A DNA stretch of 64,000 nt from a virus (IMGVR_UViG_3300010965_000001:146563-210562); one strand, 5' to 3'; positions 26,653 through 40,779 are shown, counted from the stretch's first letter. The notes: generated from the sequence alone by a model not told the origin. A program made the numbers and translations.

Positions 26653-26729
26653 TGGAGCGAGCCGAAGGAATTGAACCTCCATCCTCATGCTGGATTTAGC
26701 ATGCCATCTTAACATTAGACGAAGCCCGC
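26653..26729 (-). tRNA. tRNA-Gly-like with aberrant anticodon loop
   Basis: GCGGGCT/GGCTCGC, U73, encoded CCA; anticodon arm CATGC-TAAATCCA-GCATG. Confidence 0.7.
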
Positions 26730-26744
26730 ATATGTAACTGTAAT

Positions 26745-26773
26745 AATATACAAAATAAATCAATCAATGTCAA
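26745..26773 (-). promoter_or_regulatory. Sigma70-type promoter
   Basis: TTGACA-N17-TATATT. Confidence 0.8.
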
Positions 26774-27005
26774 GTCGTTTTTTTAATTCAAGAACTTGTT
26801 CTTCCAACCAAACAGTGTAGTCGTAGATATACCAAAAATCATATCCGTCCGTTTCAATTATATTTGAAAATCCTTCATGGACACGATTACCAAATAATTT
26901 ACGATTGACATGTGTTAATCCTTCTTCACGTAACCGTTCAACATCAGTCATCATCTTCATCACCGTCACCGTTGATTCCCTGTACACCAATGGAGTAAAA
27001 TTCAC
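26760..27005 (-). CDS. Hypothetical protein (true start probably further downstream)
   Basis: ORF overlapping neighbour stop. Confidence 0.5.
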   Translation of the reverse strand: MNFTPLVYRESTVTVMKMMTDVERLREEGLTHVNRKLFGNRVHEGFSNIIETDGYDFWYIYDYTVWLEEQVLELKKRLDID

Positions 27006-27258
27006 CGTTGTTTACATCAAACACGACACCACCTGCATTAGCACCCTTACCGAAATTTTTCCGTACATAATTTTCGAAGGACGCCCATGCCTCATTTGCA
27101 ATCTTCATAGCGTCTTCACTGTTAAGGTCAAAATATTTGGAGAATGTTTCGGATTTGTAAAGGGAAATGAGAAGTAATCCCTTTGGGGTCAGTGTATACT
27201 TTGGTTCTTCTGCGGGTTCACCGTCTGTCGGTTCCACATAATCATCATCTAAGTTCAT
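26944..27258 (-). CDS. Hypothetical acidic protein
   Basis: Start moved to MNLDDD (AAAGGAG RBS). Confidence 0.65.
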   Translation of the reverse strand: MNLDDDYVEPTDGEPAEEPKYTLTPKGLLLISLYKSETFSKYFDLNSEDAMKIANEAWASFENYVRKNFGKGANAGGVVFDVNNGEFYSIGVQGINGDGDEDDD

Positions 27259-27280
27259 CGTAACTCCTTTTGTTTGTAAA

Positions 27281-27358
27281 TGGTATCCCGAATAGGATTT
27301 GAACCTACATTCTCCAATTATGCACCTATCGTTTAGGAAACGCGGCCAATATCGGGAC
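27281..27358 (-). tRNA. Rewired tRNA-Arg(CCU)
   Basis: GTCCCGA/TCGGGAT-A-CCA; loop TTCCTAA; D-loop-like TAATTGGA lies after the anticodon arm; canonical T arm. Confidence 0.75.
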
Positions 27359-27429
27359 ATTTTATTAAATGTACTGTCTTTCTGATTCGAAAATTAAAAT
27401 TCATTATACTTATATTAAAGGAGAATATT

Positions 27430-28056
27430 ATGAAAATTAATTGTGCATATTGTGGTAAAGAAACTGATAAACGCCCATGTAGAGCAAAGGTTGAAAATAA
27501 TTGTTGCTCTATTCAATGTAAACATTTATTAATGACAACTAAATTGTTAGTTCATTGCTTACATTGTAATTTTGAATTTTATAAAAAACAATCCGAAATA
27601 AAAAAATCTAATAAACATTTCTGTAGTAAATCGTGTGCTGCAAGTTATAACAATACACACAAAACCAAAGGAAATCGAAGGTCTAAACTTGAGTCATGGA
27701 TTCAATCTAAATTAACTGAAATATATCCAAATTTAGAAATCCACTACAATCGAACTGACACAATTGATGCTGAACTTGACATCTATATTCCATCATTAAA
27801 ACTTGCATTTGAATTAAATGGAATTTTTCATTATGAACCAATTTACAGTCAATCTAAATTAGAACGAACCAAAATGAATGATTCCAAGAAATTCGTAGCA
27901 TGTCATCAGCATGACATTGGATTTTGTGTAATAGATACATCAAAACAAAAATATTTTAAAGAACAAACTTCATTGCAATATCTGAAAATAATTACAGATA
28001 TAATCAGTAGGCACGGAGAGACTCGAACTCTCATGGTTTTACCCGCAACGGTCTAA
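27430..28056 (+). mobile_element. Free-standing Vsr/DUF559-like PD-(D/E)XK endonuclease with Zn-binding N-terminus (copy 1)
   Basis: CxxC clusters; ELDIYIPSLKLAFELNGIFHY; antisense to array; C-terminus overlaps tRNA-Leu. Confidence 0.7.
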
Positions 28057-28092
28057 ACGTTGTGCGTCTATGTCCAATTTCGCCACGCGCCC
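28008..28092 (-). tRNA. tRNA-Leu(UAG)
   Basis: Cloverleaf; CAACG-TTTAGAC-CGTTG; variable arm. Confidence 0.92.
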
Positions 28093-28097
28093 ATACA

Positions 28098-28451
28098 TTA
28101 CTTATAATCGAACGGAATCCTGAGACTTCTAATTCCAGCATCATCGAAGGTGTGTTGCATACTTTGCGCTCCGACGGGATTAAAACTGTGAATGATGATT
28201 CTCTTAGGGAGTTTATCAGCAGGCAACGTAGTGATGAATTTAGCAACTTCGTGTCCACTCACCTCATCACTTGGGCAATACACATTCCCACCTAAGTCAT
28301 GGTCAAGAGAAACCAAATCGAACGGAGAATGCTCAGTTAACACTTTTATTGCATCTTCCGCTGTCTCCGCTTCAAACCATTCACAACCAATAAAATTTGG
28401 TTTTGCCTTTTTAAGACGAATTTTATCATCGTCCAAGAAAAATACTTTCAT
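28098..28451 (-). CDS. Cyclic-phosphate-processing receiver domain protein
   Basis: 117 aa; FLDDD, SLDHDLG, G.EVAKFI, IIHSFNPVG. Confidence 0.75.
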   Translation of the reverse strand: MKVFFLDDDKIRLKKAKPNFIGCEWFEAETAEDAIKVLTEHSPFDLVSLDHDLGGNVYCPSDEVSGHEVAKFITTLPADKLPKRIIIHSFNPVGAQSMQHTFDDAGIRSLRIPFDYK

Positions 28452-28546
28452 TGTTTATTATTTCTCCTATTCCGCCTAACAAGATAGTCGATACCTAAAA
28501 ATATACAAATAGTTCCAACAAACAATAAAACCGTCATATAACCTCC

Positions 28547-29023
28547 TCAACGTTCTTTATTCAAAATGTATTTTGCTTTGTAACAATTCCGTGGTGTTAA
28601 ACCACTAAATCCATCCACATGAATGAAGTTGTATTGTTGCCAAAGTAACATATCCGAATCATCATCAAAAATTACATACGTGTCAAATTCAGAGTCTCTT
28701 TTACCAAGTAATGCAAAATTATCTTGAATCCATACACGTATTTCGTTTCCACGAACTGTTCCACGTCCAAGAAAAGGTGTGTAGTCAATTATCTCACCCA
28801 CAAATCCAGCCTCTGCAAACAACTCACACAATCTGTCAATTGCAGTGCTTCGTCTCCACGATGAACTAATTACAATCTTACAATCCGTATCTTTTACAAG
28901 TTCATTGAGTAATTTAATACACCGTGGGTCTAAAGGATACCGTGTATTATCACTCTTTGGATTGGTTTGGCTGAACAGTTCACTATTAAGAACACCGTCA
29001 ATATCTAAGAATACAATTTTCAT
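28547..29023 (-). CDS. HAD-family phosphatase (RNA-repair 'Swiss army knife' type)
   Basis: 158 aa; FLDIDGVLN, IVISSSWR, IFDDDSDM. Confidence 0.8.
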   Translation of the reverse strand: MKIVFLDIDGVLNSELFSQTNPKSDNTRYPLDPRCIKLLNELVKDTDCKIVISSSWRRSTAIDRLCELFAEAGFVGEIIDYTPFLGRGTVRGNEIRVWIQDNFALLGKRDSEFDTYVIFDDDSDMLLWQQYNFIHVDGFSGLTPRNCYKAKYILNKER

Positions 29024-29042
29024 AGTAACCCTTTTTTGTTTG

Positions 29043-29117
29043 TAGCGTTCGTGGGATTCGAACCCACACGTAAGTAATTTTTGAGACTACATCCTCTGCC
29101 AGTTGGGATAGAACGCC
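29043..29117 (-). tRNA. tRNA-Leu(CAA) with short variable loop
   Basis: GTAGT-CTCAAAA-ATTAC; variable region only about 6 nt. Confidence 0.85.
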
Positions 29118-29352
29118 ATAAATTCTTCCATATACTAATGTGTTGCTCCGCACCGATTTCTACCCGACGAACGGCGAGACTCCTATAGAATACACCGTGA
29201 GACAGCAGGTGTTGACAGCCAAGCTCTCTGTCTTTATTGTCGTGTTTCGTTAGTATATGGAAGAATAAAATCACCTCTATGTGAACTCACTCATTTCAGA
29301 GATTTCTGATTCACTTTCAATCTTTTACTTTCGCAGTCAGATTAGAGGTTAG

Positions 29353-29438
29353 TAGGGATGGTCGGGGTCGAACCGACACGGTTGTTTAGACCTCCAGATT
29401 TTAAGTCTGGTGCGTGCTACCAATTTCGCCACACCCCC
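29353..29438 (-). tRNA. tRNA-Leu(UAA)
   Basis: CCAGA-CTTAAAA-TCTGG; variable arm. Confidence 0.93.
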
Positions 29439-29581
29439 ATAAAAAGTTGATAATTTAAATTTAAGGTTGAAACCCAACTGCGTCCGCGCTCGAAGTCATT
29501 CACAGTGGTCAATATCCGCCCGCTCTATTTACTTTTTTCCAGAGTCAGTCTCGCGGGTTGGCTGAAATTATCACACTTTTG

Positions 29582-29655
29582 TACACTTATCGGGATTTGA
29601 ACCCGATTTGCCTTCTTGAGAGGAAGGTATCCTAACTCATATAGATGATAAGTGC
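29582..29655 (-). tRNA. tRNA-Glu(CUC)
   Basis: CCTTC-CTCTCAA-GAAGG. Confidence 0.9.
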
Positions 29656-29659
29656 ATGG

Positions 29660-30079
29660 TTATATACACCATACGTATGGTAAATTGTCTGGAACATCTG
29701 TAAATTTACTTGAATAAAAACTATAATCCTTACGCAACAGATTTGATTGATGTGAACGATGAAAATCTTCTCTACCTAACCACTTTGGACGTTCGATTTC
29801 ACTAAATATCCTATCTCCGAGTTCTGCCAAAAAGAAGTCACGTTGAGTATCTTTGTAACCTCTCATTCTCCATTCTGTGCACATTTCGAATCCGTACAAC
29901 AACAACGCATCTTCATAACCTTTCCACATTTTAACCGCAGGGTGATTCTTCCATCCGTATTCATCCTTAGTCAATGCGAAGTAAATCTGCTTTGCTTCCA
30001 CTCGTTGCTTACCCAGTCTACGATAATCCAAAGACTTTGCAGATTGTGCGAAGTTTGGAAAAGGTAAGAAGGTTTGCAT
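29660..30079 (-). CDS. MSMEG_6728-family / pyrimidine-dimer glycosylase-like protein
   Basis: MQTFLP...LD..RLGKQRVE..QI, W.NHPAV.MW.GY, H.SHQSNLLRKD. Confidence 0.75.
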   Translation of the reverse strand: MQTFLPFPNFAQSAKSLDYRRLGKQRVEAKQIYFALTKDEYGWKNHPAVKMWKGYEDALLLYGFEMCTEWRMRGYKDTQRDFFLAELGDRIFSEIERPKWLGREDFHRSHQSNLLRKDYSFYSSKFTDVPDNLPYVWCI

Positions 30080-30199
30080 ATTAAATATCTCCCTTTTCAG
30101 ATTTGCCGTATTTAATAAAACAAACAATGCCGACGATTACTGCAATGGATGTTATCGTACCCAAAAATGATTTCCATAGTATAACCTTTTATTGTATAG

Positions 30200-30271
30200 T
30201 ATTCTCAGTTGGAATCGAACCAACATTAGAGGTTTAGAAGACCGCTGTCCTATCCGTTGAACGATGAGAAC
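30200..30271 (-). tRNA. tRNA-Arg(UCU)
   Basis: Loop CTTCTAA; D loop AACGGATA with A20. Confidence 0.9.
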
Positions 30272-30283
30272 ATATTATTTCAG

Positions 30284-30359
30284 TAGGCGTGGTAGGAGTC
30301 GAACCCACCTAACAAGGAGATATAAGCTCCTTTCCTGCAACCACGCTTGATTCACGCCC
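30284..30359 (-). tRNA. tRNA-Ile(UAU)
   Basis: AAGGAG-CTTATAT-CTCCTT. Confidence 0.85.
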
Positions 30360-30392
30360 GATTTAACATATATAAATATACGAAATTTTAAT

Positions 30393-30650
30393 TTAATAAT
30401 CAAGTGATTTTAACAATTCTTTTAACTTGTTTTTATCGAGTAAAATCTCATCAAAATCACCGAATTTACATCTATAACCGAAGATATACTTCAATCCGTA
30501 CCATATCCGTTCAAAGAATGGGCGCGGCGTCAGGTGAATTTCAACATCAATTTCATCCTCATACCCGTCCACTACTTGGAATATTACAATATGTTCCGTA
30601 GAGTTACATTCACATACCATCAATTTTCGCGTAACCATGATTATCTCCAA
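30393..30650 (-). CDS. Hypothetical phage protein
   Basis: 85 aa; CEC...EH and RIW.GLKYIFGY. Confidence 0.65.
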   Translation of the reverse strand: MEIIMVTRKLMVCECNSTEHIVIFQVVDGYEDEIDVEIHLTPRPFFERIWYGLKYIFGYRCKFGDFDEILLDKNKLKELLKSLDY

Positions 30651-30861
30651 ATATTCTGTTTAATATTTTATAGTGTTCATACAACATTGCATTTTCATTT
30701 GACCACCACATATACTGCTTGCCTATTCGTATATAGATATTTTTATTAGTCGCCCTATACACTTCGGATATGGTATCCTCAATTACGACACGTTCGTCAC
30801 TTTCTGGATTGTGCCCTCCCAACAGTATAACAATGTCACCATTTTTGAATTTGTGGTTCAT
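30610..30861 (-). CDS. Hypothetical protein
   Basis: Start MNHKFK overlaps upstream TGA. Confidence 0.5.
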   Translation of the reverse strand: MNHKFKNGDIVILLGGHNPESDERVVIEDTISEVYRATNKNIYIRIGKQYMWWSNENAMLYEHYKILNRIFGDNHGYAKIDGM

Positions 30862-31754
30862 ATGATACTCAAATATTTGCAATACATTGTGTCAGATGAT
30901 AAATACATTTCTGCTAACTTTCGATTTATGTCACCCATAAATATACTGTAGTTCTTAATTTCATTTGATACTACATCATCATCCCATGCACCATCTACAA
31001 GATACGCCATATTCATATTATAATAGAACAACTCATTAAAATTACGTTCTGTGACCCACGTGCTAAGTGTTCTACCATCCGAAACAAACACGGCTTTACC
31101 ACATGCCATGCCTTCATATGCAGACCGCCCAATCCCAATTACAAAGTCAGATAAATGAATCATATCTCTAATTTCACGTTGTCCAAAGTCATTGCCAACA
31201 AATTGTAATTCAATATCATTTTGCTTAAAAGAATTTATCAGTTGCTCTGTAAAATGTGTAGAATATCGTGATAGAACCAATCCTCTTTTTAATTTCACTG
31301 CGGAACAACCCATGTAATCAAACAAATCCAAATCTATTCCATTTGGTATACTGTAATTTGCATTAATCAAATCATACAAATATTGACTTACTGCGATAAC
31401 TTTTCCATTGAAATTATAATCATATAAACCTTCACACATTGCTTTGCCATGTGCCACAAATATTTTCTTAGCGGTAACGGTATTAAATTCTTCTAAATGA
31501 AAAAGATAATTTAAAAATATTACATCGAACTTATTATAGTTAGCAGATTCGTCAGGAAGGATAATAGAAATATTCGCGGATTTGCAGTAATCAAAAAACT
31601 TCGGCTTGCTTACATCATAATAAGGACGAAACTTTTCAGGAATAATCTTAAAAGATACAAAATGCCCATCATCAATAAAGTGTTTAGCAAGCGTGTAAGC
31701 CCACGTATTTACTCCTGTGAACCGATTATGTTGTAACACAAGTAGAATTTTCAT
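30858..31754 (-). CDS. Glycosyltransferase (GT-B, GT4-like)
   Basis: 298 aa; TG..TW..TLA, IPNGIDL, GIGRSAYEGMACGK. Confidence 0.75.
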   Translation of the reverse strand: MKILLVLQHNRFTGVNTWAYTLAKHFIDDGHFVSFKIIPEKFRPYYDVSKPKFFDYCKSANISIILPDESANYNKFDVIFLNYLFHLEEFNTVTAKKIFVAHGKAMCEGLYDYNFNGKVIAVSQYLYDLINANYSIPNGIDLDLFDYMGCSAVKLKRGLVLSRYSTHFTEQLINSFKQNDIELQFVGNDFGQREIRDMIHLSDFVIGIGRSAYEGMACGKAVFVSDGRTLSTWVTERNFNELFYYNMNMAYLVDGAWDDDVVSNEIKNYSIFMGDINRKLAEMYLSSDTMYCKYLSII

Positions 31755-31774
31755 TGTAGACCTTATATTGTTAG

Positions 31775-31847
31775 TACCCTAGTGCGGAATCGAACCGCCG
31801 TCTCAGCTTTGTAAGAGCCACGCCTTATACCACTAGACCACAAGGGC
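31775..31847 (-). tRNA. tRNA-Val(UAC)
   Basis: Loop CTTACAA; cloverleaf. Confidence 0.88.
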
Positions 31848-31858
31848 ATTTGTTGTTG

Positions 31859-31930
31859 AGAACGAAATGGGAATTGAACCCATCTAAATGGTTTTGCGGA
31901 CCATCACCTCAGCCTCTCGGTCATTCGTTC
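31859..31930 (-). tRNA. tRNA-Cys(GCA)
   Basis: ATGGT-CCGCAAA-ACCAT; U73; C at position 33. Confidence 0.88.
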
Positions 31931-31941
31931 ATGTTTTATTG

Positions 31942-32013
31942 AGCCCCTTACCCGCATCGAACGGGTGACTTAACTTTACGAGAGTCACATTTTACCAACT
32001 AAACTAAAAGGGC
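31942..32013 (-). tRNA. tRNA-Thr(CGU)
   Basis: TGACT-CTCGTAA-AGTTA. Confidence 0.88.
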
Positions 32014-32021
32014 GTTTCTTG

Positions 32022-32092
32022 CAGTCCTAAATGGTGTTGAACCACTGTTTTTCGGTTCAGAGCCGAATGTAATACCGTTATACTATAGGACT
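32022..32092 (-). tRNA. tRNA-Gln(CUG)
   Basis: TTCGG-CTCTGAA-CCGAA; G73. Confidence 0.9.
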
Positions 32093-32097
32093 ATTTG

Positions 32098-32170
32098 CAG
32101 AGGCAGCAGGGCTCGAACCTACACTTGTACGCCTTCAAAGGGCGTTGCCATACCATTAGGCGATACCTCT
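32098..32170 (-). tRNA. tRNA-Gln(UUG)
   Basis: ACGCC-CTTTGAA-GGCGT; G73. Confidence 0.9.
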
Positions 32171-32180
32171 AAACCTTTTA

Positions 32181-32549
32181 TTACTTGAACAACTGAGAAG
32201 AAATTATAAAATTTGCAGTTGCACGATTACACGCTGTTGGAACATCATACAGAACTGCAAGTCTAAGTAATGCCTTAACGTCTGGGTCATGTGGATGTGC
32301 GTTCATCGGGTCCCAAAAAAATATTAATGCATCGACTTGTTTATTTGCAATCATTGCACCTATTTCTTGGTCGCCACCGAGCGGTCCAGATTTTTTACGT
32401 TCAACCACCAAATCAGTTGCATCGGTGATTAATCCACCCGTAGTTCCTGTAGCGACTAATGTGTGTTTACTTAAAGTTAATTTATTGAAGACTGCCCATT
32501 CCAATAAATCTTTCTTTTTTTCATCATGTGCAATTAGTGCTATATTCAT
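32181..32549 (-). CDS. mgsA: Methylglyoxal synthase
   Basis: [31 protein letters not shown]...[11 protein letters not shown]. Confidence 0.95.
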
Positions 32550-32710
32550 TCAGTCACTTCCTTAGATTTTAACCACTTAAAATACATTTCCAACCAATCT
32601 CCAGACGTATGTTCATCTTTCCACGATGTTTCATCCATAAATTGGCTGATGAGGTTTTCCATGTGACATTGAAATTCGACCATTCCCATTTCTTCGTTAG
32701 TCTGCTCCAT
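32546..32710 (-). CDS. Hypothetical protein
   Basis: 54 aa from MEQTNE; overlaps both neighbours. Confidence 0.5.
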
Positions 32711-33240
32711 GACCTGCCATTTTCTTTTCCTTACCACGGCAAACATGGTCACTTGCATAACTTGCTGCAGGCGAGTCAGGCTTTGCGTATGCATCGAAAC
32801 CCATACTCTGAATATATCCCATAGCCTGCTTGTGGATAACATTGCTTTCGAAGTTTTCATTTGGGTTTACATCCAAGTGAACTTCAAATGCGGTGATTTT
32901 CTTATTATCAAACAAATCAGAATCAGTTAAAATGGACGCAATATCAACTACTCTGTAAACTTCATCCCAAAGACGATTCTTTAACCTATCTCCCTTTGCC
33001 TTACCGTAAATCTTAACATTGTTATCACGCGAAAAGACAACGTGTGCACCACGACCAACCTTGTAGATACAAACAACTGTTACATATGTTGCGGCGTCAA
33101 AACGACGGGGCTGACTGTCACATCCTACGTAAATTTTAAATTCAGAAGTAAGTTCATCCTTACGAATGTATTCTTTAATATACTCCGCGATGTTTGGAAT
33201 CTTCGTTCCCTCTACCGTTTCCCATTTGAATTCTCGCATA
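32697..33240 (-). CDS. YkuK/DUF458 RNase H-like protein
   Basis: YVGCDSQ, RL..EV, EVHLDVN, KP.S.AAS.A.DH; start moved to MREFKW (AAGGAG RBS). Confidence 0.8.
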
Positions 33241-33266
33241 ACCTTACTCCTTTGTTTTGTTAGTTG

Positions 33267-33341
33267 TCGGAGTGACAGGATTCGAACCTGCGACCTCATG
33301 GTCCCAAACCACGCGCTCTACCAAACTGAGACTACACTCCG
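33267..33341 (-). tRNA. tRNA-Pro(UGG)
   Basis: C1:G72; loop TTTGGGA. Confidence 0.93.
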
Positions 33342-33574
33342 ATATATTTACCTTTTAGTGCATTAAAACTTTCTAAATACAATGGTCCTTTACAATTGGG
33401 ACATCCATGAGAATAATATAATAGATACCAATTCTCATACAAACTGTCAACGAATCGAAATCTATGCTCATGGTTTATAAATGCTTTGCAATTGTAACAC
33501 CTTATCAGTGGAGCATTTCCAGCATTTATAATTCTAACACAACGTTCTCTAAATTCTTTATATGATAGAGTCAT
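33332..33574 (-). CDS. Small Zn-finger protein (paralog 3)
   Basis: MTLSYKEF...CYNC...CPNC; stop codon lies inside tRNA-Pro. Confidence 0.6.
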   Translation of the reverse strand: MTLSYKEFRERCVRIINAGNAPLIRCYNCKAFINHEHRFRFVDSLYENWYLLYYSHGCPNCKGPLYLESFNALKGKYIGV

Positions 33575-33591
33575 AATCATTTTGTTTATTG

Positions 33592-33666
33592 TCGGGATAG
33601 AGAGACTTGAACTCTCACGATACCTTCGCCCCAAACGAAGTGGCTTGCCAATTAGCCCACATCCCG
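33592..33666 (-). tRNA. tRNA-Pro(UGG), second copy
   Basis: CTTCG-TTTGGGG-CGAAG. Confidence 0.88.
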
Positions 33667-33668
33667 TA

Positions 33669-33896
33669 TTAAAATGCCCTTACAAACTTGTCACCACGTT
33701 CATCTTTAGCACATTCTAAATACTTTTGTGAATTACATCTAACACATTTACGAATATAGTTATAATTATATAACATATGGAAATCTCCACCAACCTTTAT
33801 CCACGTTCCACAATAATAACACTTTAATATTGGTATGTGACGTGCTTTTCTAATTCGGTCAATTCTATCACAAAATTCTTCATAAGATAGTGTCAT
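33669..33896 (-). CDS. Small Zn-finger protein (paralog 2)
   Basis: MTLSYEEF...CYYC...CVRC. Confidence 0.6.
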   Translation of the reverse strand: MTLSYEEFCDRIDRIRKARHIPILKCYYCGTWIKVGGDFHMLYNYNYIRKCVRCNSQKYLECAKDERGDKFVRAF

Positions 33897-34084
33897 CTTG
33901 GTTTTCCCGCAGTAAAACTTTTTAAATATAATTGAGAACCACACCGTTTGCATCCACGTTCATATCGAATATATCCACCAGCATTTTCATGTTGAATACA
34001 TTTATAACAGAATAACAGTGGTGCATGCTGTGCAAGACGTATTCTATTAATCCTGTCGTAATATTCATTAAAAGAAAGCATCAT
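33893..34084 (-). CDS. Small Zn-finger protein (paralog 1)
   Basis: MMLSFNEY...CYKC...CKRC. Confidence 0.6.
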   Translation of the reverse strand: MMLSFNEYYDRINRIRLAQHAPLLFCYKCIQHENAGGYIRYERGCKRCGSQLYLKSFTAGKPR

Positions 34085-34182
34085 AACATTTATCAATTTT
34101 AAAGGTAATCGACATTAGTATGTAACAACATAACTCGTGTAGTTAGAGGTTTGTCAGGATACTACTCCACAATTACCAATTG

Positions 34183-34260
34183 TACACACAGAAGGACTCG
34201 AACCTTCATTTTCAACCATTACCTATAGTCCCGCGTATCAGACGGGCTGGATATGTGTGC
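34183..34260 (-). tRNA. Rewired tRNA-Ile(GAU)
   Basis: GCACACA/TGTGTGT-A; CCCGT-CTGATAC-GCGGG only 7 nt after the acceptor strand; TAATGG after the anticodon arm; canonical T arm. Confidence 0.78.
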
Positions 34261-34267
34261 ATTGTTG

Positions 34268-34350
34268 CTCATTAGGTAGGATTCGAACCTACAGGGGCGT
34301 TAGCCGTCCGCTTAACAGGCGGGGGAGTTTACCAGTTCCTCTACTAATGA
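34268..34350 (-). tRNA. tRNA-Asn(GUU) with long variable arm
   Basis: Loop CTGTTAA; V arm GGC-TAAC-GCC; U1:A72, G73. Confidence 0.85.
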
Positions 34351-34364
34351 ATATAAATTTTTTG

Positions 34365-34446
34365 TGCATTCGGAAGGAGTCGAACCCTCGTTGGATTTCT
34401 CCACCGCTTAAGAGGCGGGTGCATAATGCCGTTCTGCCACGAATGC
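34365..34446 (-). tRNA. tRNA-Lys(CUU) with long variable arm
   Basis: Loop CTCTTAA; V arm GGA-GAAA-TCC. Confidence 0.85.
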
Positions 34447-34454
34447 TTGTTTTG

Positions 34455-34527
34455 TACACCCAGTAGGAGTCGAACCCACCTAATACAATTTAAAAGATTG
34501 TTACCTAAACCGCTCGGTCACGGGTGC
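34455..34527 (-). tRNA. tRNA-Lys(UUU)
   Basis: ACAAT-CTTTTAA-ATTGT. Confidence 0.9.
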
Positions 34528-34533
34528 GTGTTG

Positions 34534-34604
34534 TGCACCCACAGGGAATCGAACCCTGGTCAATTGATTAAAAGTCAACTGCTTTGCCACTAAGCTATGG
34601 ATGC
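34534..34604 (-). tRNA. tRNA-Lys(UUU), second copy
   Basis: GTTGA-CTTTTAA-TCAAT. Confidence 0.92.
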
Positions 34605-34642
34605 GTTTATTAACGTCACACCCACTACTTAGTGAATGCGAC

Positions 34643-34669
34643 CTACCGTTTAGTCATCTTCTTTTTCAT
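34643..34669 (-). CDS. Lys-rich mini-ORF MKKKMTKR
   Basis: AAGGAGA RBS; followed by a 12-bp hairpin (34615-34642). Confidence 0.4.
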   Translation of the reverse strand: MKKKMTKR

Positions 34670-34733
34670 TGTGTATATCTCCTTAATTGTCTTTCGCCCC
34701 GCTACCATAAGCAATATGCTTAATTTCTTGTTG

Positions 34734-34805
34734 AGCCCCAGATGGGAGTTGAACCCATGTCTCATCCTTACCAAAGACGCGTTCTACCGTTAGTACTACA
34801 AGGGC
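34734..34805 (-). tRNA. tRNA-Thr(GGU)
   Basis: CGTCT-TTGGTAA-GGATG. Confidence 0.88.
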
Positions 34806-34948
34806 AAATCTGTTAAAAATTTTGTGAGTTTCGGTGTCCTACGAAGTGCTCTGTTATTTTTCTTTTTATTAAAAACTGCACGTTCATTGGAATCTGCATA
34901 CTTATTTGTTGCCTTTGTAACAATCTTTTTATACAGTGCTTTTTGCAT
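34796..34948 (-). CDS. Small basic protein
   Basis: 50 aa MQKALYKK...TDLPL*; AAGGA RBS; stop inside tRNA-Thr. Confidence 0.4.
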   Translation of the reverse strand: MQKALYKKIVTKATNKYADSNERAVFNKKKNNRALRRTPKLTKFLTDLPL

Positions 34949-34967
34949 AAAAATCCTTTTTTGTTTG

Positions 34968-35038
34968 AGCCCACTATCGGAGTCGAGCCGATGTCACAAC
35001 TTTACAAGAGTCGCGTTTTACCGTTAAACTAAGCAGGC
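34968..35038 (-). tRNA. tRNA-Thr(UGU)
   Basis: CGACT-CTTGTAA-AGTTG. Confidence 0.88.
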
Positions 35039-35053
35039 ATGCTGTGTTACTTG

Positions 35054-35128
35054 TAGTGCGTACGGGATTCGAACCCGTGATACCTACCTTGAAAGGGTAG
35101 TGACTTAAGCCAGCTTGTCGAACGCACC
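35054..35128 (-). tRNA. tRNA-Glu(UUC)
   Basis: CTACC-CTTTCAA-GGTAG. Confidence 0.92.
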
Positions 35129-35133
35129 ATATA

Positions 35134-35279
35134 ATATTTTATAATAGGATTTTCACCTATACGGTCTACCTCTCTCCTAGCTGACCCACTTGGAATTTTA
35201 CTTCCGTGCCCGACTCGAACGGGGATGGGTGTGACCTCGATTCAGCTCTAGCGTCTAAATATTTCGCCATATAAAATAT
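35134..35279 (-). ncRNA. tRNA-scaffold RNA with a second T arm replacing the anticodon loop
   Basis: All-A/U closing stem, Leu/Ser-type D arm, outer T arm ATAGG-TGAAAAT-CCTAT, inner CCCG-TTCGAGT-CGGG. Confidence 0.6.
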
Positions 35280-35281
35280 TG

Positions 35282-35370
35282 CGGAAGAAAAGAGAATTGA
35301 ACTCTTAGGACACTTTCATGCCCGACTGTTTAGCAAACAGGTCCGACTAACCAATATTCGGCTTTCTTCC
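35282..35370 (-). tRNA. tRNA-Ser(GCU)
   Basis: Loop TTGCTAA; long V arm; G73. Confidence 0.92.
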
Positions 35371-35376
35371 ATGTTG

Positions 35377-35445
35377 TACGGTATTTTGGTTCCGACCCAA
35401 ATCAACAAGTTTATGATACTCGTTTCGTCTCCTGACGTATACCGC
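35377..35445 (-). tRNA. Minimal tRNA-Met-like RNA (CAU)
   Basis: GCGGTAT/ATACCGT; mini D arm GTC-AGGA-GAC; AACGAGT-ATCATAA-ACTTGTT; T arm TTTGG-GTCGGAA-CCAAA. Confidence 0.6.
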
Positions 35446-35461
35446 GTTAAAACTAATTTGG

Positions 35462-35528
35462 TAGCGGGGCTGGGAACCGCCCCCAGGTAATCTCGGTTAT
35501 GAGCCGGACTGGCACTCTGCTCCCCGCA
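35462..35528 (-). tRNA. Short initiator-like tRNA-Met(CAU), non-canonical D and T loops
   Basis: U1xU72; loop CTCATAA; D arm GCA-GAG-TGC; T loop GGCGGTT. Confidence 0.7.
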
Positions 35529-35541
35529 ATATATTCTTTTG

Positions 35542-35614
35542 TAGCGCGAACGGGATTCGAACCCGTGGTCTGAAGGTTATGAGCCTACTGAGATGACCTC
35601 TTCTCTATCGCGCA
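35542..35614 (-). tRNA. tRNA-fMet(CAU)
   Basis: U1xU72 mismatch; loop CTCATAA; canonical T arm. Confidence 0.9.
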
Positions 35615-35626
35615 GTAATTTCTTTG

Positions 35627-35697
35627 AGCACCGTATCGGTGTCGAACCGATGACCGTAGTTTGGAAGACTACTATTTTACCGTTAAACTAACAGTGC
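35627..35697 (-). tRNA. tRNA-Gly(UCC)
   Basis: GTAGT-CTTCCAA-ACTAC; U73. Confidence 0.92.
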
Positions 35698-35715
35698 GTT
35701 ATTTCTGACACTTAT

Positions 35716-35744
35716 AATATACAACTAATTTTCATCAATGTCAA
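35716..35744 (-). promoter_or_regulatory. Sigma70-type promoter
   Basis: TTGACA-N17-TATATT. Confidence 0.8.
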
Positions 35745-35931
35745 GTTTTTCTTTTCTACGTATTCTTTTTTTACATCGTTCGTATGGAATACCATCTTCC
35801 ACCTTATAATCTGTTTCTATTACATTTTCACAATCCCAACATTCGTGACCCCAATGTCCACCTGCGTTAAACCAATTCCAACAAACATAGATAGATTTAC
35901 AGTACGGACATTTACGAAATCGATTTTTCAT
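35725..35931 (-). CDS. Small Zn-ribbon protein
   Basis: CPYC...CWDC; AAGGG RBS. Confidence 0.6.
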   Translation of the reverse strand: MKNRFRKCPYCKSIYVCWNWFNAGGHWGHECWDCENVIETDYKVEDGIPYERCKKRIRRKEKLDIDEN

Positions 35932-35932
35932 A

Positions 35933-36232
35933 TTATCCCTTGTAGAATTTGTTGAGAATTTCTTCTATCTCACCACTTGCCAACATTGTTCCACATTCAC
36001 AAATGGCTTGAATGTCATATTGATGGTCAATTCCTCCATCTGGATTCCACAATGGAGTTTCTTTAATACGTAACTTCCATGTGTGTACATGTTTTTCTTT
36101 TTTATCATGTCCCATAATAGAACCCTTTATAAATATAAAAGAATAAAAAATACCCACGATTCTGTATAACGGATACCATTTCTCTATTGGCCGCAACCCG
36201 CTCTCATCAATAACAGGAAATGAGTATCTCAA
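35933..36232 (-). CDS. Hypothetical protein (start uncertain)
   Basis: 99 aa ORF. Confidence 0.4.
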   Translation of the reverse strand: MRYSFPVIDESGLRPIEKWYPLYRIVGIFYSFIFIKGSIMGHDKKEKHVHTWKLRIKETPLWNPDGGIDHQYDIQAICECGTMLASGEIEEILNKFYKG

Positions 36233-36383
36233 GCTGTTTGCGTTGCACGCTCTCTTGTAGTTAAACGATTTTCATCAATTCATCGTCTCCGATGGTTGAG
36301 ATAATCTCCTACTCTTCCTGTTGCGTGTCGTGAGGTTCCTCACATCCTTTTACAAGGGTAGTGCGGTATCCTATTTTATTCTT

Positions 36384-36456
36384 GTTGCTCGACAGGCTTC
36401 GAACCTGTAGTCTCTCGGGTCGCAGCCGAGCATTTTACCAATTAAACTACAAGCCA
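36384..36456 (-). tRNA. tRNA with GCG anticodon (Arg) on a His-like body
   Basis: CTCGG-CTGCGAC-CCGAG; C73; U20. Confidence 0.75.
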
Positions 36457-36635
36457 ATTTTCATTCCACCAGCCATAATAACTTGTAATGCCATTTGGTG
36501 ATGTTCTGGTTTTATTTTTGAAAAATCAAATACCGCGTCTACTTCTGCACCATTTCCAAAATCAACATATCCTTTTACCATGACTTTTGGTTCTGTCATT
36601 ACTATACAAATATTATCAATGTCTGCCGTAATCAT
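36447..36635 (-). CDS. Hypothetical protein
   Basis: 62 aa from MITADI; stop inside the downstream tRNA. Confidence 0.5.
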   Translation of the reverse strand: MITADIDNICIVMTEPKVMVKGYVDFGNGAEVDAVFDFSKIKPEHHQMALQVIMAGGMKIGL

Positions 36636-36658
36636 AATATAACCTTTATGTTGTTCTG

Positions 36659-36749
36659 CGGAAAAGAGAGGATTCGAACCCCCAACCCAGCTTTCGCCAA
36701 GAACTGTTTTCGAGACAGTAGCGGTCATCCAGTTACGCTTTACTCTTCC
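36659..36749 (-). tRNA. tRNA-Ser(CGA)
   Basis: ACTGT-CTCGAAA-ACAGT; long V arm. Confidence 0.92.
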
Positions 36750-36876
36750 ATTTTCGTTCCCATACAGAAACCAATATTGCAAGTGGAAATGCAAACGGTA
36801 ACAAAAATAATGCTTCTCTACTTGTATATGGTGAACATAAATATTTTATGTTATTCCAAAAATTTCTAAATCCCAT
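36733..36876 (-). CDS. Small membrane peptide
   Basis: 47 aa from MGFRNFW; one TM; stop inside tRNA-Ser(CGA). Confidence 0.45.
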   Translation of the reverse strand: MGFRNFWNNIKYLCSPYTSREALFLLPFAFPLAILVSVWERKWKSKA

Positions 36877-36899
36877 GATATAACCTTTTTGTTGTTCTG

Positions 36900-36987
36900 C
36901 GGAAAGTGAGGGGCTCGAACCCGTCAACTGATTTTTCAACCAGCATCTGATTTCCAATCAGACTCCTTGCCAATTCGGTTACTTTCC
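36900..36987 (-). tRNA. tRNA-Ser(GGA)
   Basis: TCTGA-TTGGAAA-TCAGA; long V arm. Confidence 0.9.
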
Positions 36988-36988
36988 A

Positions 36989-37111
36989 TTATTTTTTACT
37001 ATCCCACAATGCCCAAATCAATCCAACTAATACGATAGCGGGTATTGTCCACCAAGGGTCTTCTTTGTTAATCTTAATCTTATTCCAAAATTCTTTTAAC
37101 AGTTCATTCAT
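36989..37111 (-). CDS. Small membrane peptide
   Basis: 40 aa from MNELLKEFW; one TM. Confidence 0.45.
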   Translation of the reverse strand: MNELLKEFWNKIKINKEDPWWTIPAIVLVGLIWALWDSKK

Positions 37112-37134
37112 TGAAAACCTTTGTTTGTGTATTG

Positions 37135-37217
37135 CGGAAGATATAGGAGTCGAACCTATACATCCTTTCGGACGGCAGTTTTCAAGACTGCTGCAATAGC
37201 CATTATGCGAATCTTCC
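37135..37217 (-). tRNA. tRNA-Ser(UGA)
   Basis: GCAGT-CTTGAAA-ACTGC; V arm TCC-GAAA-GGA. Confidence 0.93.
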
Positions 37218-37219
37218 AT

Positions 37220-37363
37220 TTAACAATTTGTTTTATACTTTCTCACACGACCTTTCCATCTTCGAATACAAATCAAACATGCTTTACTTTCTTTTATCAT
37301 TTTGCGTATTTTTAACTTCTTGTAGACAGAAGAATTTGTCGTATTTTTCAAAGTATCAGTCAT
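37220..37363 (-). CDS. Small basic peptide with CxxC
   Basis: 47 aa from MTDTLK. Confidence 0.35.
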   Translation of the reverse strand: MTDTLKNTTNSSVYKKLKIRKMIKESKACLICIRRWKGRVRKYKTNC

Positions 37364-37494
37364 AGTATATTCAGTTATGCGATAGTGAACAGTAATTAAA
37401 CCTTTACCTCCATAACTCGTTTTGAGTGAGTCAGCGCTCTGATTTGAACAGGCGATTCGTAGCGTGCAAGGCTCGCGAGGTTTCTCATATTTTG

Positions 37495-37574
37495 TAGACT
37501 TGATAGGATTTGAACCTACATTTTCAGCTCCAGTTACGATTAAATGTTTCGAAGACATACTCGGCTACAAGTCC
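37495..37574 (-). tRNA. Rewired tRNA-Arg(UCG)
   Basis: GGACTTG/CAAGTCT-A; ATGT-CTTCGAA-ACAT; TAACTGGA after the anticodon arm; canonical T arm. Confidence 0.78.
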
Positions 37575-37586
37575 ATATAAAATTAA

Positions 37587-37785
37587 ACCCAATTGATGCC
37601 GTATTCATCTCTGCGGGGTTGCAATGCCTTACGTAAAGAATGTCTGATAGCACCATCGCCTTTACTACCAAACTGCTCTCGGCTACTGAACTATAAAACC
37701 GTCAACCTACACATTAAAGTGCCCAGCCTCCCGATAACGATTATGTGATGACCAGGAATCGTTAGTTCATTTACATCTCTTGGGT
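37587..37785 (-). ncRNA. Unassigned structured RNA, ~200 nt
   Basis: ACCCAA/TTGGGT, GATG/CATC, TGAACTA/TAGTTCA, AACGATT/AATCGTT. Confidence 0.5.
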
Positions 37786-37789
37786 ATTG

Positions 37790-37860
37790 AGCATCGTATC
37801 GGTTACGCTCCGATTTTTGTAACTTGGCAAGTTACCATTCTACTATTAAATTAACGATGC
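37790..37860 (-). tRNA. tRNA-Gly(GCC) lacking D-loop GG and T-loop TTC
   Basis: GTAAC-TTGCCAA-GTTAC; D loop AATAGTA; T loop AGCGTAA; all stems intact. Confidence 0.75.
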
Positions 37861-37914
37861 ATTTGTGATTCGAAAATTAAAATTCATTATACTTATACAT
37901 ATAAGGAGAATACT

Positions 37915-38514
37915 ATGAAAATACCAATTATATGTGATTATTGTGGAAATCCGTCAACAAAATTAAAATATAGCATTACACGATATAAAAATCATTTCTG
38001 CTCCAATACCTGTGCTTCCATGTTTCATAGGAATAAAATTGAAGTAGAATGTAAATTTTGTGGAAATAAATTTCTAAAATTTGCAAATCAACTAAAAAAA
38101 CATCCAAACAGTTTTTGTAATAAATCATGTGCTGCTAAATACAACAACACACATAAAACACATGGGTCATCTCGTTCTAAACTTGAAGTGTGGTTGGAAA
38201 ACGAACTTATTACATTATATCCAACTTTGGATTTTCATTTCAATCGTAAAGATGCCATCAATTCTGAACTCGACATTTATATTCCATCGTTAAAACTTGC
38301 ATTTGAACTAAATGGAATCTTTCATTTTGAACCAATTTTTAGTGAATCTGGGTTAAAGCGAACCAAAGAAAACGATTCAAAAAAATTTAAATTATGCCAT
38401 GACAATGGAATCAGTTTATGTGTAATCGACACTTCAAAACAAAAATATTTTAAAGAACAAACTTCATTACAATATCTAAAAATAATTACAGATATTATTA
38501 ATATGAAAGTTTAA
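37915..38514 (+). mobile_element. Free-standing Vsr/DUF559-like endonuclease (copy 2)
   Basis: Paralog of 27430-28056 (ELDIYIPSLKLAFELNGIFH; DTSKQKYFKEQTSLQYLKIITDII identical); shared 32-bp upstream sequence. Confidence 0.7.
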
Positions 38515-38519
38515 ATATT

Positions 38520-38590
38520 TGCGGTGTGTTGTCATTTACACTATTAATTCCGATTTCGAAATTAAATTGAATTTGAGCCAATATCTCCGC
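38520..38590 (-). pseudogene. Possible decayed tRNA-Ser
   Basis: Starts GCGGAG, ends CCGC, contains TTCGAAA; other stems lost. Confidence 0.25.
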
Positions 38591-38735
38591 ATTTACAACT
38601 AAATTGTGTCCGTATGCTATCCAGTACATCACGATTTTCAATCTATCATTTAGGTGCTCATGCATTAGCACAGTAATGGATTTCACGTTGTTCTGAAAAT
38701 CGAGAGGAATCGAACCTCTTCAACGGACTGTTATT

Positions 38736-38764
38736 AATATACAAAATCTTTTTATCAATGTCAA
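38736..38764 (-). promoter_or_regulatory. Sigma70-type promoter
   Basis: TTGACA-N17-TATATT; followed by an isolated T arm (AGAGG-TTCGATT-CCTCT, about 38703-38719). Confidence 0.8.
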
Positions 38765-38815
38765 CAACTTATTCTGTGATTAAATTGGAGTCGAAATTTA
38801 ATTTCCAGATACTTG

Positions 38816-38888
38816 TGCGACAGACTTGAGTTGAACAAGTTCCTGTGGTTTTTCAGACCACCGTGCATACCACCTACACCACTCTCGC
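38816..38888 (-). tRNA. tRNA-Phe(GAA)
   Basis: GTGGT-CTGAAAA-ACCAC. Confidence 0.88.
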
Positions 38889-39096
38889 ATAAAAACGTAG
38901 GAATCACGGGTTGTACATGCACGGGTATTTCACTCCCCACTATTTCCCGTTGCCCAGTTTAATTGCAACCTATTATATTCACTGTTCGTATACTCTTCTT
39001 GCCGCTAAGCAAGTACCCTCTACTTTAAAATGTATTCGTGAATATCCACTTTACCATACATTGGGATTTTCGTGTTTTAATAGGTATACAGTATAT

Positions 39097-39387
39097 CTAT
39101 AAAATCTCTACTACCTTTCCATACACACTGCGTGTCCATCCATTTATACCACCTCTGTTATTTCCAATCAAACAACCTTTGTGTAAGTCCGTTGCTTTAA
39201 CTAAGTGCGTATAATAATTTCCATGAACTTTGCAATATACAATGTCTCCAGTCTTAACTTCTAAGAATGTTACAGGAGCGAGTTTATGCTCTTGACCAGA
39301 CTTAATTAGTGGAACCATTGAATTACCTTTTTCACTGGTGATAAACGTCTCACCATTTTGTAACTTCTCTAATTTGTAGTTTCTCAT
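39097..39387 (-). CDS. S24/S26 peptidase-like protein
   Basis: KGNSMVPLIKSG, GDIVYCKVHG...HLVK. Confidence 0.7.
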   Translation of the reverse strand: MRNYKLEKLQNGETFITSEKGNSMVPLIKSGQEHKLAPVTFLEVKTGDIVYCKVHGNYYTHLVKATDLHKGCLIGNNRGGINGWTRSVYGKVVEIL

Positions 39388-39389
39388 AG

Positions 39390-39471
39390 TGCAGTTACAG
39401 AGACTCGAACTCTGACGGATTACTCCACGGGCTTCTTAGACCCGCATGTTTACCAATTACATCATAACTGC
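39390..39471 (-). tRNA. tRNA-Leu(AAG)
   Basis: CGGGT-CTAAGAA-GCCCG; V arm. Confidence 0.9.
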
Positions 39472-39480
39472 GTTTTGTTG

Positions 39481-39563
39481 TGTATCGCCAGGGAATCGAA
39501 CCCCGCGTGTCCTTCCGAACGGGTGGGTTACAGCCACCTGCCACACCTTGTAGCCTGCGATAC
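39481..39563 (-). tRNA. tRNA-Tyr(GUA)
   Basis: GGTGG-CTGTAAC-CCACC; V arm. Confidence 0.88.
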
Positions 39564-39575
39564 ATATTATTACTT

Positions 39576-39647
39576 GACATCCAGAGAGCCTTGAACTCTC
39601 ATTCCCCACTGAAATGTGAGTTCTTAGTCCGTTTAGAAGATAGATGT
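39576..39647 (-). tRNA. tRNA-like RNA with 6-nt anticodon loop (Glu-like)
   Basis: ACATCTA/TGGATGT; CTCAC-ATTTCA-GTGGG; GAGAG-TTCAAGG-CTCTC. Confidence 0.65.
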
Positions 39648-39684
39648 TCCGTGTTATTCACCTGCCCGATGAGGTAACACATTC

Positions 39685-39915
39685 TTAGAATCTTGAAGTA
39701 TATCTCATTGTTTCTGTTTCGATAGCCTTCTTAATCCATTTCATAAAATAAATTGCTTTTTCATCACGAAGGAGAACACCAGTTCCAACTTCTTCAATTG
39801 GAATAGGAAATTCATACATATCATTCTCAACCGAAATTGAGTAATACACTTTTCCTTCTTGATAAAAGGAAAATTGTGCCGTGTTGTTTTCTATAATTTG
39901 TTTAATTGTATGCAT
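39685..39915 (-). CDS. Conserved phage hypothetical protein
   Basis: 76 aa from MHTIKQ; G..YY...FPIPI.EVG.G.LL..EKAIYFMKWI. Confidence 0.65.
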   Translation of the reverse strand: MHTIKQIIENNTAQFSFYQEGKVYYSISVENDMYEFPIPIEEVGTGVLLRDEKAIYFMKWIKKAIETETMRYTSRF

Positions 39916-39933
39916 TGTTTTTCTTTCTGTTTG

Positions 39934-40011
39934 TAGGAAGAGATGGATTCGAACCATCAGTCTCCGAGTCAATGATTCCCCGGCGTTTTGCGCTTATTAA
40001 ACTATCTGCCT
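39934..40011 (-). tRNA. tRNA-like RNA with 10-nt anticodon loop (Trp-like body)
   Basis: AGGCAGA/TCTTCCT; CCGGG-GAATCATTGA-CTCGG; canonical T arm. Confidence 0.65.
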
Positions 40012-40017
40012 ATGTTG

Positions 40018-40088
40018 CGCGTCCTACAGGAGTCGAACCCGTGTGAGGAGATTTGGAGTTTCCCATGTTTCCGTTACATCAAGGACGC
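40018..40088 (-). tRNA. tRNA-Trp(CCA)
   Basis: Loop CTCCAAA; G73. Confidence 0.9.
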
Positions 40089-40429
40089 ATTTTTACGTGA
40101 CGTATTTTATGACAATTTGCACAAATTAAATCACATTTTTCAATTTCAGTGTTAAAATATGTTTTACCACTATGAATTGCACCAGACACGGACGATAATT
40201 TTTTAGACGGCTCTCTGTGATGGAACTCTGCAATTTCTGGATGCTCATTAAATGATACATTACAGTCCATACAAAATTGTGTTTTTTTCCATTCTATTAA
40301 TTCTTCTTTTTTCTTTCGTCTGACATCTAACTGCGAATCAATTTGATGTTTTTTATTGCGGTAATACCAATCTCTACGGTATTGTCGCATTTTATCTATA
40401 TTTTCTTCTTTCCATTCTAATGTCGCCAT
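40079..40429 (-). mobile_element. Free-standing HNH endonuclease
   Basis: CMDC...EFHHREP...EKCDLICANCHKIRH; GGAG RBS; stop inside tRNA-Trp. Confidence 0.8.
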
Positions 40430-40551
40430 GATATTCTCCATTTGTTTAACCACTATATATAAATAGTAGTATCCAAATGGAAAGTTGTGTTTGGAGACAT
40501 TATTTGTTAATAAATTTTGGATGCTGTTTTACCATTGCCACTACAAAAAGT

Positions 40552-40636
40552 CGTTAGACAATCTGGTGGGAGTCGAACCCACAACTTCATCCTTGTTAAA
40601 TCCTGCCATATGTCCTATCCGTTAGACGATGTTACC
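40552..40636 (-). pseudogene. Degenerate tRNA
   Basis: D arm and T arm intact; anticodon and acceptor stems unpaired. Confidence 0.5.
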
Positions 40637-40641
40637 CCGAA

Positions 40642-40719
40642 GGGCACCACTGGGATTCGAACCCAGATTTTCCAGCCTGTTAAACACGTAGAGTGCTCTG
40701 ACCACTGAGCTACCGTGCC
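40642..40719 (-). pseudogene. tRNA-like gene lacking an anticodon stem
   Basis: GGCACGG/TGGTGCC, canonical D and T arms, no anticodon pairing. Confidence 0.6.
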
Positions 40720-40726
40720 GTCTTTT

Positions 40727-40770: not shown

Positions 40771-40779
40771 TTTCTTAAA

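Follow-up and report, generated by a model that had tools for sequence, protein, structure and literature searches.

The 64,000-nucleotide stretch of viral DNA analysed here (IMGVR_UViG_3300010965_000001:146563-210562, hereafter the window) lies at the very end of one contig, 210,562 bp long and with a G+C content of about 37%, and it raises the question of whether a transfer RNA (tRNA) can be built, and can decode, when its D loop lies on the other side of the anticodon arm. A sequence-only reading of the window had proposed three such genes, and these were located on the minus strand as tRNA-Arg(CCU) at 27281-27358, tRNA-Ile(GAU) at 34183-34260 and tRNA-Arg(UCG) at 37495-37574, all sharing one layout. 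Judged from their sequences and those of their homologues, the three genes are probably (at about 0.8) working decoder tRNAs of a widespread, mostly phage-borne class in which the core is threaded unlike that of the cloverleaf. The decoder role can be proposed with good confidence for Arg-UCG and Ile-GAU, and less so for Arg-CCU.

The common layout begins with a 7-bp acceptor stem (7/7 pairs in each gene, including G1.U72) and U8-A9, after which only 5-6 nucleotides (nt) lead into the anticodon stem, and the D-arm hairpin expected between nt 9 and nt 26 is absent from all three genes. The anticodon loop comprises 7 nt with U33, A37 and the anticodon CCU, GAU or UCG. It is followed beyond the anticodon arm by 19-23 nt containing UAAUUGG, UAAUGG or UAACUGG, by a T arm with a 5/5-bp stem and a UUCRANU loop (UUCAAAU, UUCGAGU and UUCAAAU), and by the 3' strand of the acceptor stem with discriminator A. 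As had been claimed from the sequence, CCA is encoded in one gene only, Arg-CCU (27281-27283). The absence of canonical tRNAs with the anticodons CCU, GAU and UCG, originally proposed for the window, was found by ARAGORN and Rfam to extend to the whole 210-kb genome.

Homologues were searched with a pattern that joins the D-loop motif to the T arm and therefore cannot match a normal tRNA. As a result, 92 loci were identified in IMG/VR, nearly all with the same layout, which reduced to 64 distinct sequences. The same pattern returned 17 stretches from 596 Gb of prokaryotic genomes, mostly contigs of metagenome-assembled genomes (MAGs), and 15 genes within them matched a covariance model, R1, built from 19 members of the long-linker subtype with Arg-UCG in the seed alignment. 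R1 added further copies from these loci, which hold as many as four each, so that the covariance search suggested by the sequence-only reading yielded a phage-heavy family of 91 distinct members. Applied to the window, R1 recovered exactly the three flagged genes (89.6 bits for Arg-UCG, 48.5 for Ile-GAU and 36.3 for Arg-CCU), the next match scoring 26.3 bits and being a canonical tRNA. BLAST and R1 also located unannotated members in two cultured phages. In Vibrio phage D260 (OZ195864) the member (about 66332-66411, 86.9 bits) lies in a 95-nt stretch left blank in the annotated tRNA array, and in Pseudomonas phage vB_PaeM_Ty (OQ555403) it lies between two coding sequences and away from the annotated tRNA genes (about 4932-5011, 92.3 bits). 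Multiple copies were exemplified by L103, a MAG contig binned as Saccharofermentanales with three rewired tRNAs in tandem at 1650-1926, and by L015 with four (1601-2571 and 8617-8694). The class is widespread and mostly phage-borne. The D-loop-like segment UAAYUGG(A/U) lies 3' of the anticodon arm in 3/3 window genes and in 91/91 members, a count that is partly built into the seed pattern.

Alignment of the family defined one long composite arm. On its 5' side, helix B (nt 8-11), helix A (nt 12-14) and the anticodon stem follow one another without a break as far as the anticodon loop. On its 3' side, a bulge of 2-4 nt is followed by an 8-nt bulge with the D-loop signature, UAAYUGG(A/U), and the arm is joined to the canonical T arm by 4-5 A-rich nucleotides, the last of which is U. 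All supported pairs nest, with no pseudoknot. Helix A, in which the three nucleotides directly before UAA pair with linker nucleotides, had been anticipated from the three genes, and its covariation was confirmed by compensatory changes in alignments that were not fitted to any structure. MAFFT alignment of the three genes alone misaligns the core, so homologues were needed. For the middle pair, MAFFT alignment of 52 short-linker sequences (A6) gave CG 22, GC 17, UA 7 and AU 3 at columns 13:38, and that of 19 long-linker sequences (A3) gave GC 15, AU 3 and CG 1 at 13:39; in the model-fitted alignment of 76 distinct rows (A4), columns 13:44 held GC 35, CG 24, AU 7 and UA 7. The register is fixed as positions 7-9 from the anticodon loop, where 54/91 members form 3/3 pairs and 35/91 form 2/3 (89/91 with at least 2/3), and no alternative register exceeded 10 members with 3/3.

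The structural model proposed from the window alone held for helix A and was incomplete in that it missed helix B, in which nt 8-11 pair with the bases directly after GG(A/U). In the long-linker subtype (A3, 19 sequences), columns 10:50 contained AU 9, GC 7, CG 1 and UA 1, and columns 11:49 contained CG 14, UA 2 and AU 1. Helix B is short or absent (0-3 bp) in the other subtypes. Overall, 94-95% of the cells in paired columns form a pair (95.4% in A3), compared with 33-44% when the partners were slid by 1-3 columns. Acceptor cells pair at 98.5-98.9% across the family, with compensatory changes at all 7 pairs. With 91 distinct sequences showing such changes, the layout is shared far more than chance allows.

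The position of helix A relates the rewired core to the normal one. In the cloverleaf, positions 7-9 from the anticodon loop are nucleotides 25-23, and position 6 is nucleotide 26. Helix A therefore occupies the place of the D-stem pairs 10-12:23-25, and the D-loop sequence begins at its normal height; the helix would stand in for those D-stem pairs above the anticodon. U8 and A9 are invariant (91/91), as are the equivalents of A14 and of G18/G19, the latter three being fixed by the seed pattern. At the 15:48 equivalents, 87 members have A:U and 2 have G:C, as a Levitt pair predicts, with G:G as the one exception, and the T loops conform to UUCRANU throughout the family. The displaced loop may thus keep the U8:A14, R15:Y48 and G18/G19:T-loop contacts and still show position 20 to arginyl-tRNA synthetase (ArgRS). 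These features point to a molecule in which the usual tertiary contacts would be kept while the strands are joined differently.

Arg-UCG (80 nt) is the best-formed of the three genes and a textbook member of the class. In RNA numbering, its acceptor stem joins 1-7 to 73-79, helix B joins 8-11 to 47-50 (4 bp: U.G, A-U, G-C and C-G), helix A joins 12-14 to 36-38 (3/3: C-G, G-C and A-U), and the anticodon stem joins 15-20 to 28-33 with 6 bp including one U.U. The anticodon lies at window positions 37550-37552 and the D-loop-like segment, UAACUGGA, at 37529-37536; farther 3' come AAAAU, the T arm (37503-37519), discriminator A and a 3' trailer of CAA.

Ile-GAU (78 nt) is a good member of the short-linker subtype. 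Its 7/7 acceptor stem includes C4:G69, its 5-bp anticodon stem (5/5) includes C29:G41, and its anticodon lies at 34237-34239. Helix A consists of 2 bp, C11 and C12 with G38 and G39 (34249-34250 with 34222-34223), which is 2/3 of the family register, and G14-C33 and A13-U34 are further possible pairs. The D-loop-like UAAUGGU (34215-34221) is followed by the 3' side of a 2-bp helix B (A9-U47 and U8.G48) and then by AAAAU, the T arm, discriminator A and the trailer CAA. The gene follows tRNA-Asn at a distance of 6-7 nt, in a closely spaced tandem run of Lys-Lys-Lys-Asn.

Arg-CCU (75 nt plus the encoded CCA) is the weakest of the three, and the sequence-only reading had been too generous to it: it belongs to the class by its layout and its R1 score, but its anticodon stem is irregular. 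The anticodon is at 27335-27337, and its stem consists of three Watson-Crick pairs beside the loop followed by G.A and C.U, or of an alternative pairing with bulges. Only GAAU separates the D-loop-like segment (UAAUUGGA, 27313-27320) from the T arm, so helix B is absent. Pairing of the linker was upheld in an ambiguous form, either as the UG/CA of the family register (U11-A38 and G12-C37, 2 bp, 2/3) or as the originally proposed GC/GC one step off. A short subtype resembling this gene occurs in L015 (1601-1676, 52.5 bits). Arg-CCU may be a weaker, impaired or partly decayed member of the class.

Standard gene finders treat these genes poorly. ARAGORN made no call for any of the three, and its calls overlap only 5/113 family genes. 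With Rfam tRNA (RF00005), Arg-UCG scored 34.8 bits, above the gathering score of 29, and Arg-CCU scored 26.5 bits, below it; Ile-GAU gave no tRNA match at E values up to 10. The Rfam alignments (cmscan) delete the D arm, placing 5 nt against 15 model positions, and insert about 20 nt in the V loop. When the ARAGORN threshold was lowered or its mitochondrial mode was used, the genes were called as Thr(GGU), Asn(AUU) or mitochondrial Ile(AAU), with the D-loop-like segment taken for the anticodon loop; these calls were rejected because that segment is invariant across members with differing true anticodons. The fourth R1 match in the window (43284-43360, 26.3 bits) was also rejected, as it is a canonical cloverleaf with anticodon AUG within a GOLLD RNA, whose D hairpin mimics the anticodon hairpin of the model.

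Arginine anticodons predominate in the family (83/91: UCU 41, ACG 28, UCG 7, CCU 5 and CCG 2), the others including GAU in five members and CAU and UAU in one each; one UCU member carries C33. A20 is the main determinant for E. coli ArgRS, and C4:G69 and C29:G41 are determinants for E. coli isoleucyl-tRNA synthetase (IleRS). The identity argument first made for the window genes extends to the family at position 20, since GG is followed by A in 80/83 Arg members and by U in the GAU and CAU members, with A as the discriminator base throughout the Ile-type members. The two Ile pairs fared less well, being present in the window gene and lacking in other Ile members. The cores of the Ile members are closest to different Arg subtypes, which, in sequences as short as these, suggests repeated switches of identity, each with matching marks.

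The anticodon set of the phage likewise agrees with what had been proposed: the three rewired genes fill gaps in a near-complete set whose canonical members include only UCU and GCG for Arg and no GAU for Ile. Ile-GAU is the only tRNA of the phage for AUU/AUC, codons that together amount to 52.7 per 1000 in its long open reading frames (ORFs), where CGA and AGG amount to 5.6 and 2.3. Across the family, 11/113 rewired genes have an ARAGORN call with the same anticodon in their locus; four of these calls are the rewired gene itself, leaving seven, in loci that typically hold nine canonical tRNAs. The host ArgRS or IleRS would charge the rewired tRNAs, and the phage codons read would be CGA/CGG, AGG and AUU/AUC.

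Several points weigh against this assignment. About 40-50% of members do not form the third pair of helix A. The U8.G and A9-U pairs of helix B never vary and are uninformative, and they would compete with the U8:A14 contact. The seed pattern fixes the D-loop and T-arm motifs, whose conservation is to that extent built in, and the covariation counts come from related sequences, so that shuffle controls overstate their significance. With helices A and B coaxially stacked, the one base that links G19 to helix B would seem insufficient in length for a canonical elbow contact, which makes the tertiary picture uncertain. Within the window, Arg-CCU combines a poor anticodon stem with the lack of helix B.

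The alternative that survives best, improbable though it is, holds that the RNAs are tRNA mimics acting outside translation, as decoys or sponges for host anticodon nucleases or other tRNA-binding defence proteins specific for Arg or Ile anticodon loops, or as regulators that bind ArgRS or IleRS. In favour of mimicry, conservation is strongest in the anticodon stem-loop and in the acceptor/T minihelix, with a remodelled core between them, and the concentration of the class in phages and the RNA-repair and RNase genes inside the array suit it as well. However, a decoy has no need to complete a set, yet the rewired genes have the anticodons that the canonical set lacks. The identity marks at position 20 and the discriminator follow the anticodon, CCA is encoded in 61/91 members, and helix A holds the canonical distance from the anticodon; the vB_PaeM_Ty member, set apart from the annotated tRNA genes, also speaks against mimicry.

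Decay offers a still less probable account, in which the genes are rearranged tRNA pseudogenes tolerated while the host supplies the real tRNAs. Their rejection by standard finders would be expected of pseudogenes, as would the mismatches in the Arg-CCU anticodon stem, and single-sequence minimum free energy folds differ among the three genes and are no better than those of shuffled sequences (z-scores from -0.3 to -1.6). Yet decay would not yield one shared non-canonical architecture across 91 distinct sequences on very different contigs, and it would account neither for the compensatory changes in every helix, with their high proportion of paired cells, nor for the invariant tertiary positions. 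For the single Arg-CCU copy alone, the pseudogene explanation could hold. Permuted tRNA genes exist in some algae, and all D-arm parts are present here in a different order; nevertheless, it is barely credible that these are ordinary tRNAs whose permuted or intron-bearing genes are processed back to a cloverleaf, since the two acceptor strands stand at the gene ends in normal order without circular permutation, the anticodon hairpin would have to be excised and re-inserted, the Rfam scan shows no bulge-helix-bulge or group I intron signal, and the covarying rewired helices imply selection on the fold as encoded.

Given decoder tRNAs of this kind, their layout might be explained by evasion. A non-cloverleaf tRNA that is charged by ordinary ArgRS or IleRS and decodes on bacterial ribosomes might be kept because its core escapes enzymes that recognise the D arm or the elbow; candidates for the enzymes evaded are defence nucleases of the host that cleave tRNAs, or activities of the phage itself that deplete host tRNAs. 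The phage concentration of the class (92 viral loci against 17 stretches in a far larger prokaryotic collection) fits this idea, as do the RNA-repair and RNase genes inside the array. The full proposal is nonetheless rather doubtful, and a tolerated rearrangement spread by descent and transfer fits the layout equally well.

Comparison with known tRNAs sets out what is retained and what is changed. Like canonical tRNA-Arg and tRNA-Ile (RF00005), the rewired genes have a 7-bp acceptor stem, a discriminator and often CCA, a UUCRANU T loop, a 7-nt anticodon loop with U33 and R37, equivalents of U8, A14, R15, G18, G19 and Y48, an A (Arg) or U (Ile) after GG, and a setting in phage tRNA arrays. Unlike them, nt 10-14 lead straight into the anticodon stem with no D hairpin, and the D-loop sequence, placed 3' of the anticodon arm, bulges out between two short helices, giving a three-way rather than a four-way junction. 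A short connector between acceptor and anticodon stems, with no D hairpin in the usual place, is shared with D-arm-lacking mitochondrial tRNAs such as mammalian mitochondrial tRNA-Ser(AGY) and nematode mitochondrial tRNAs, which have lost the D loop and its contacts with the T loop and are flexible (PMC7609411). In contrast, the D-loop signature, GG included, is complete in the rewired class, the T loop is canonical, and the carriers are phages of bacteria. tRNA-Sec, the allo-tRNAs (8/4 and 9/3) and tRNA-Pyl are likewise natural departures from the 7/5 cloverleaf that standard finders miss (PMC5389517, PMC7609411); these vary in stem length and keep the arm order of the cloverleaf, whereas the rewired class changes the strand connectivity of the core.

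Rfam contains no family for the rewired layout. A 2020 review of natural non-canonical tRNAs covers only tRNA-Sec, allo-tRNAs, tRNA-Pyl and armless mitochondrial tRNAs, with phages unmentioned (PMC7609411). The earlier statement that no published description was known agrees with a search of the full-text literature, with most subscription journals outside it, in which none was found. A single cloverleaf connectivity has been assumed for bacterial-type elongator tRNAs, an assumption on which gene finders, Rfam and identity rules rest. Charging and decoding by these RNAs, if true, would be very surprising to tRNA specialists. A conserved class that retains the nucleotides of the tertiary contacts while threading the chain differently would mean that another secondary structure can also give rise to the L-shaped core and, given the 5/113 overlap with ARAGORN, that phage tRNA repertoires are systematically under-counted. 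The class would also provide a natural test of the D-arm needs of ArgRS, IleRS, EF-Tu, RNase P, modification enzymes and the ribosome, as well as a ready scaffold for orthogonal tRNA engineering. Were the layout to protect against tRNA-targeting defence, it would represent a new counter-defence strategy.

The source of the window is an uncultured jumbo myovirus-like phage, as indicated by its few PHROG matches, which include genes for a baseplate wedge protein and a virion structural protein, together with the finding that the DNA sequencing runs holding the window are all metagenomes. A near-identity search of the array against deposited phages returned single canonical tRNAs only, with no close cultured relative in the collection. 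The entire tRNA complement of the phage lies inside the window on the minus strand, at about 26.6-43.4 kb. The array (26656-43354) comprises 34 tRNAs called by ARAGORN, which also reports a transfer-messenger RNA (tmRNA), and several atypical genes, amounting to about 40 genes (42 in the trailer count below); the Rfam scan adds the GOLLD RNA and several weak tRNA matches. The tmRNA (23811-24193, minus strand, Rfam 111.4 bits) lies just upstream of the array and encodes a long tag peptide ending in AYAA.

Trailers and leaders in the array are distinctive. CAA stands immediately after the discriminator in 27/42 tRNA genes, the rewired Ile and Arg-UCG genes among them, while CCA occurs in only 3/42 and CTA, CTG or CAG in a further 8. 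Many of the 5' leaders terminate in AU. The CAA trailers and AU-ending leaders look like a shared processing signal. The array is interspersed with small ORFs and with genes for RNA processing or repair. These include an RNase T-like exonuclease gene (41274-42071) and, on the minus strand, ORFs for the HAD domain of 'Swiss Army Knife' RNA repair proteins (28547-29023; PF18143, 1.9e-27) and an RNaseH-like protein (32697-33263; PF04308, 1.4e-24). A pyrimidine dimer DNA glycosylase is also encoded on that strand (29660-30127; PF03013, 3.7e-23).

The GOLLD RNA was detected at full length on the minus strand (42961-43425; RF02032, 180.5 bits). It embeds a canonical tRNA with anticodon AUG at 43285-43354, called His(atg) by ARAGORN. 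Several atypical tRNA genes, all on the minus strand, accompany the rewired ones. A tRNA-like gene with an encoded CCA (26656-26729, Rfam 34 bits) could be the sole Asp candidate of the array; in its predicted fold, a 6-bp stem with a 6-nt loop (AAAUCC) replaces the normal anticodon arm, and the D stem abuts the acceptor stem. Another tRNA-like gene (30284-30359), with anticodon UAU (Ile, AUA), is missed by ARAGORN and has tRNA-Sec as its only Rfam match (27.4 bits); it shows G1.U72, A8 in place of U8 and an irregular D region. ARAGORN also missed a gene at 39934-40011 (Rfam 45.8 bits), which has a 5-bp anticodon stem, a 10-nt loop with CAU, a D loop without GG and one acceptor mismatch, as well as a class II Ser(CGA) tRNA at 36659-36749 and a Glu(UUC)-like gene at 39576-39647. 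Directly after tRNA-His, weak Rfam matches to YrlA (Y RNA-like; 36.2 and 21 bits) with T-arm-like motifs occupy 40491-40767 on the same strand.

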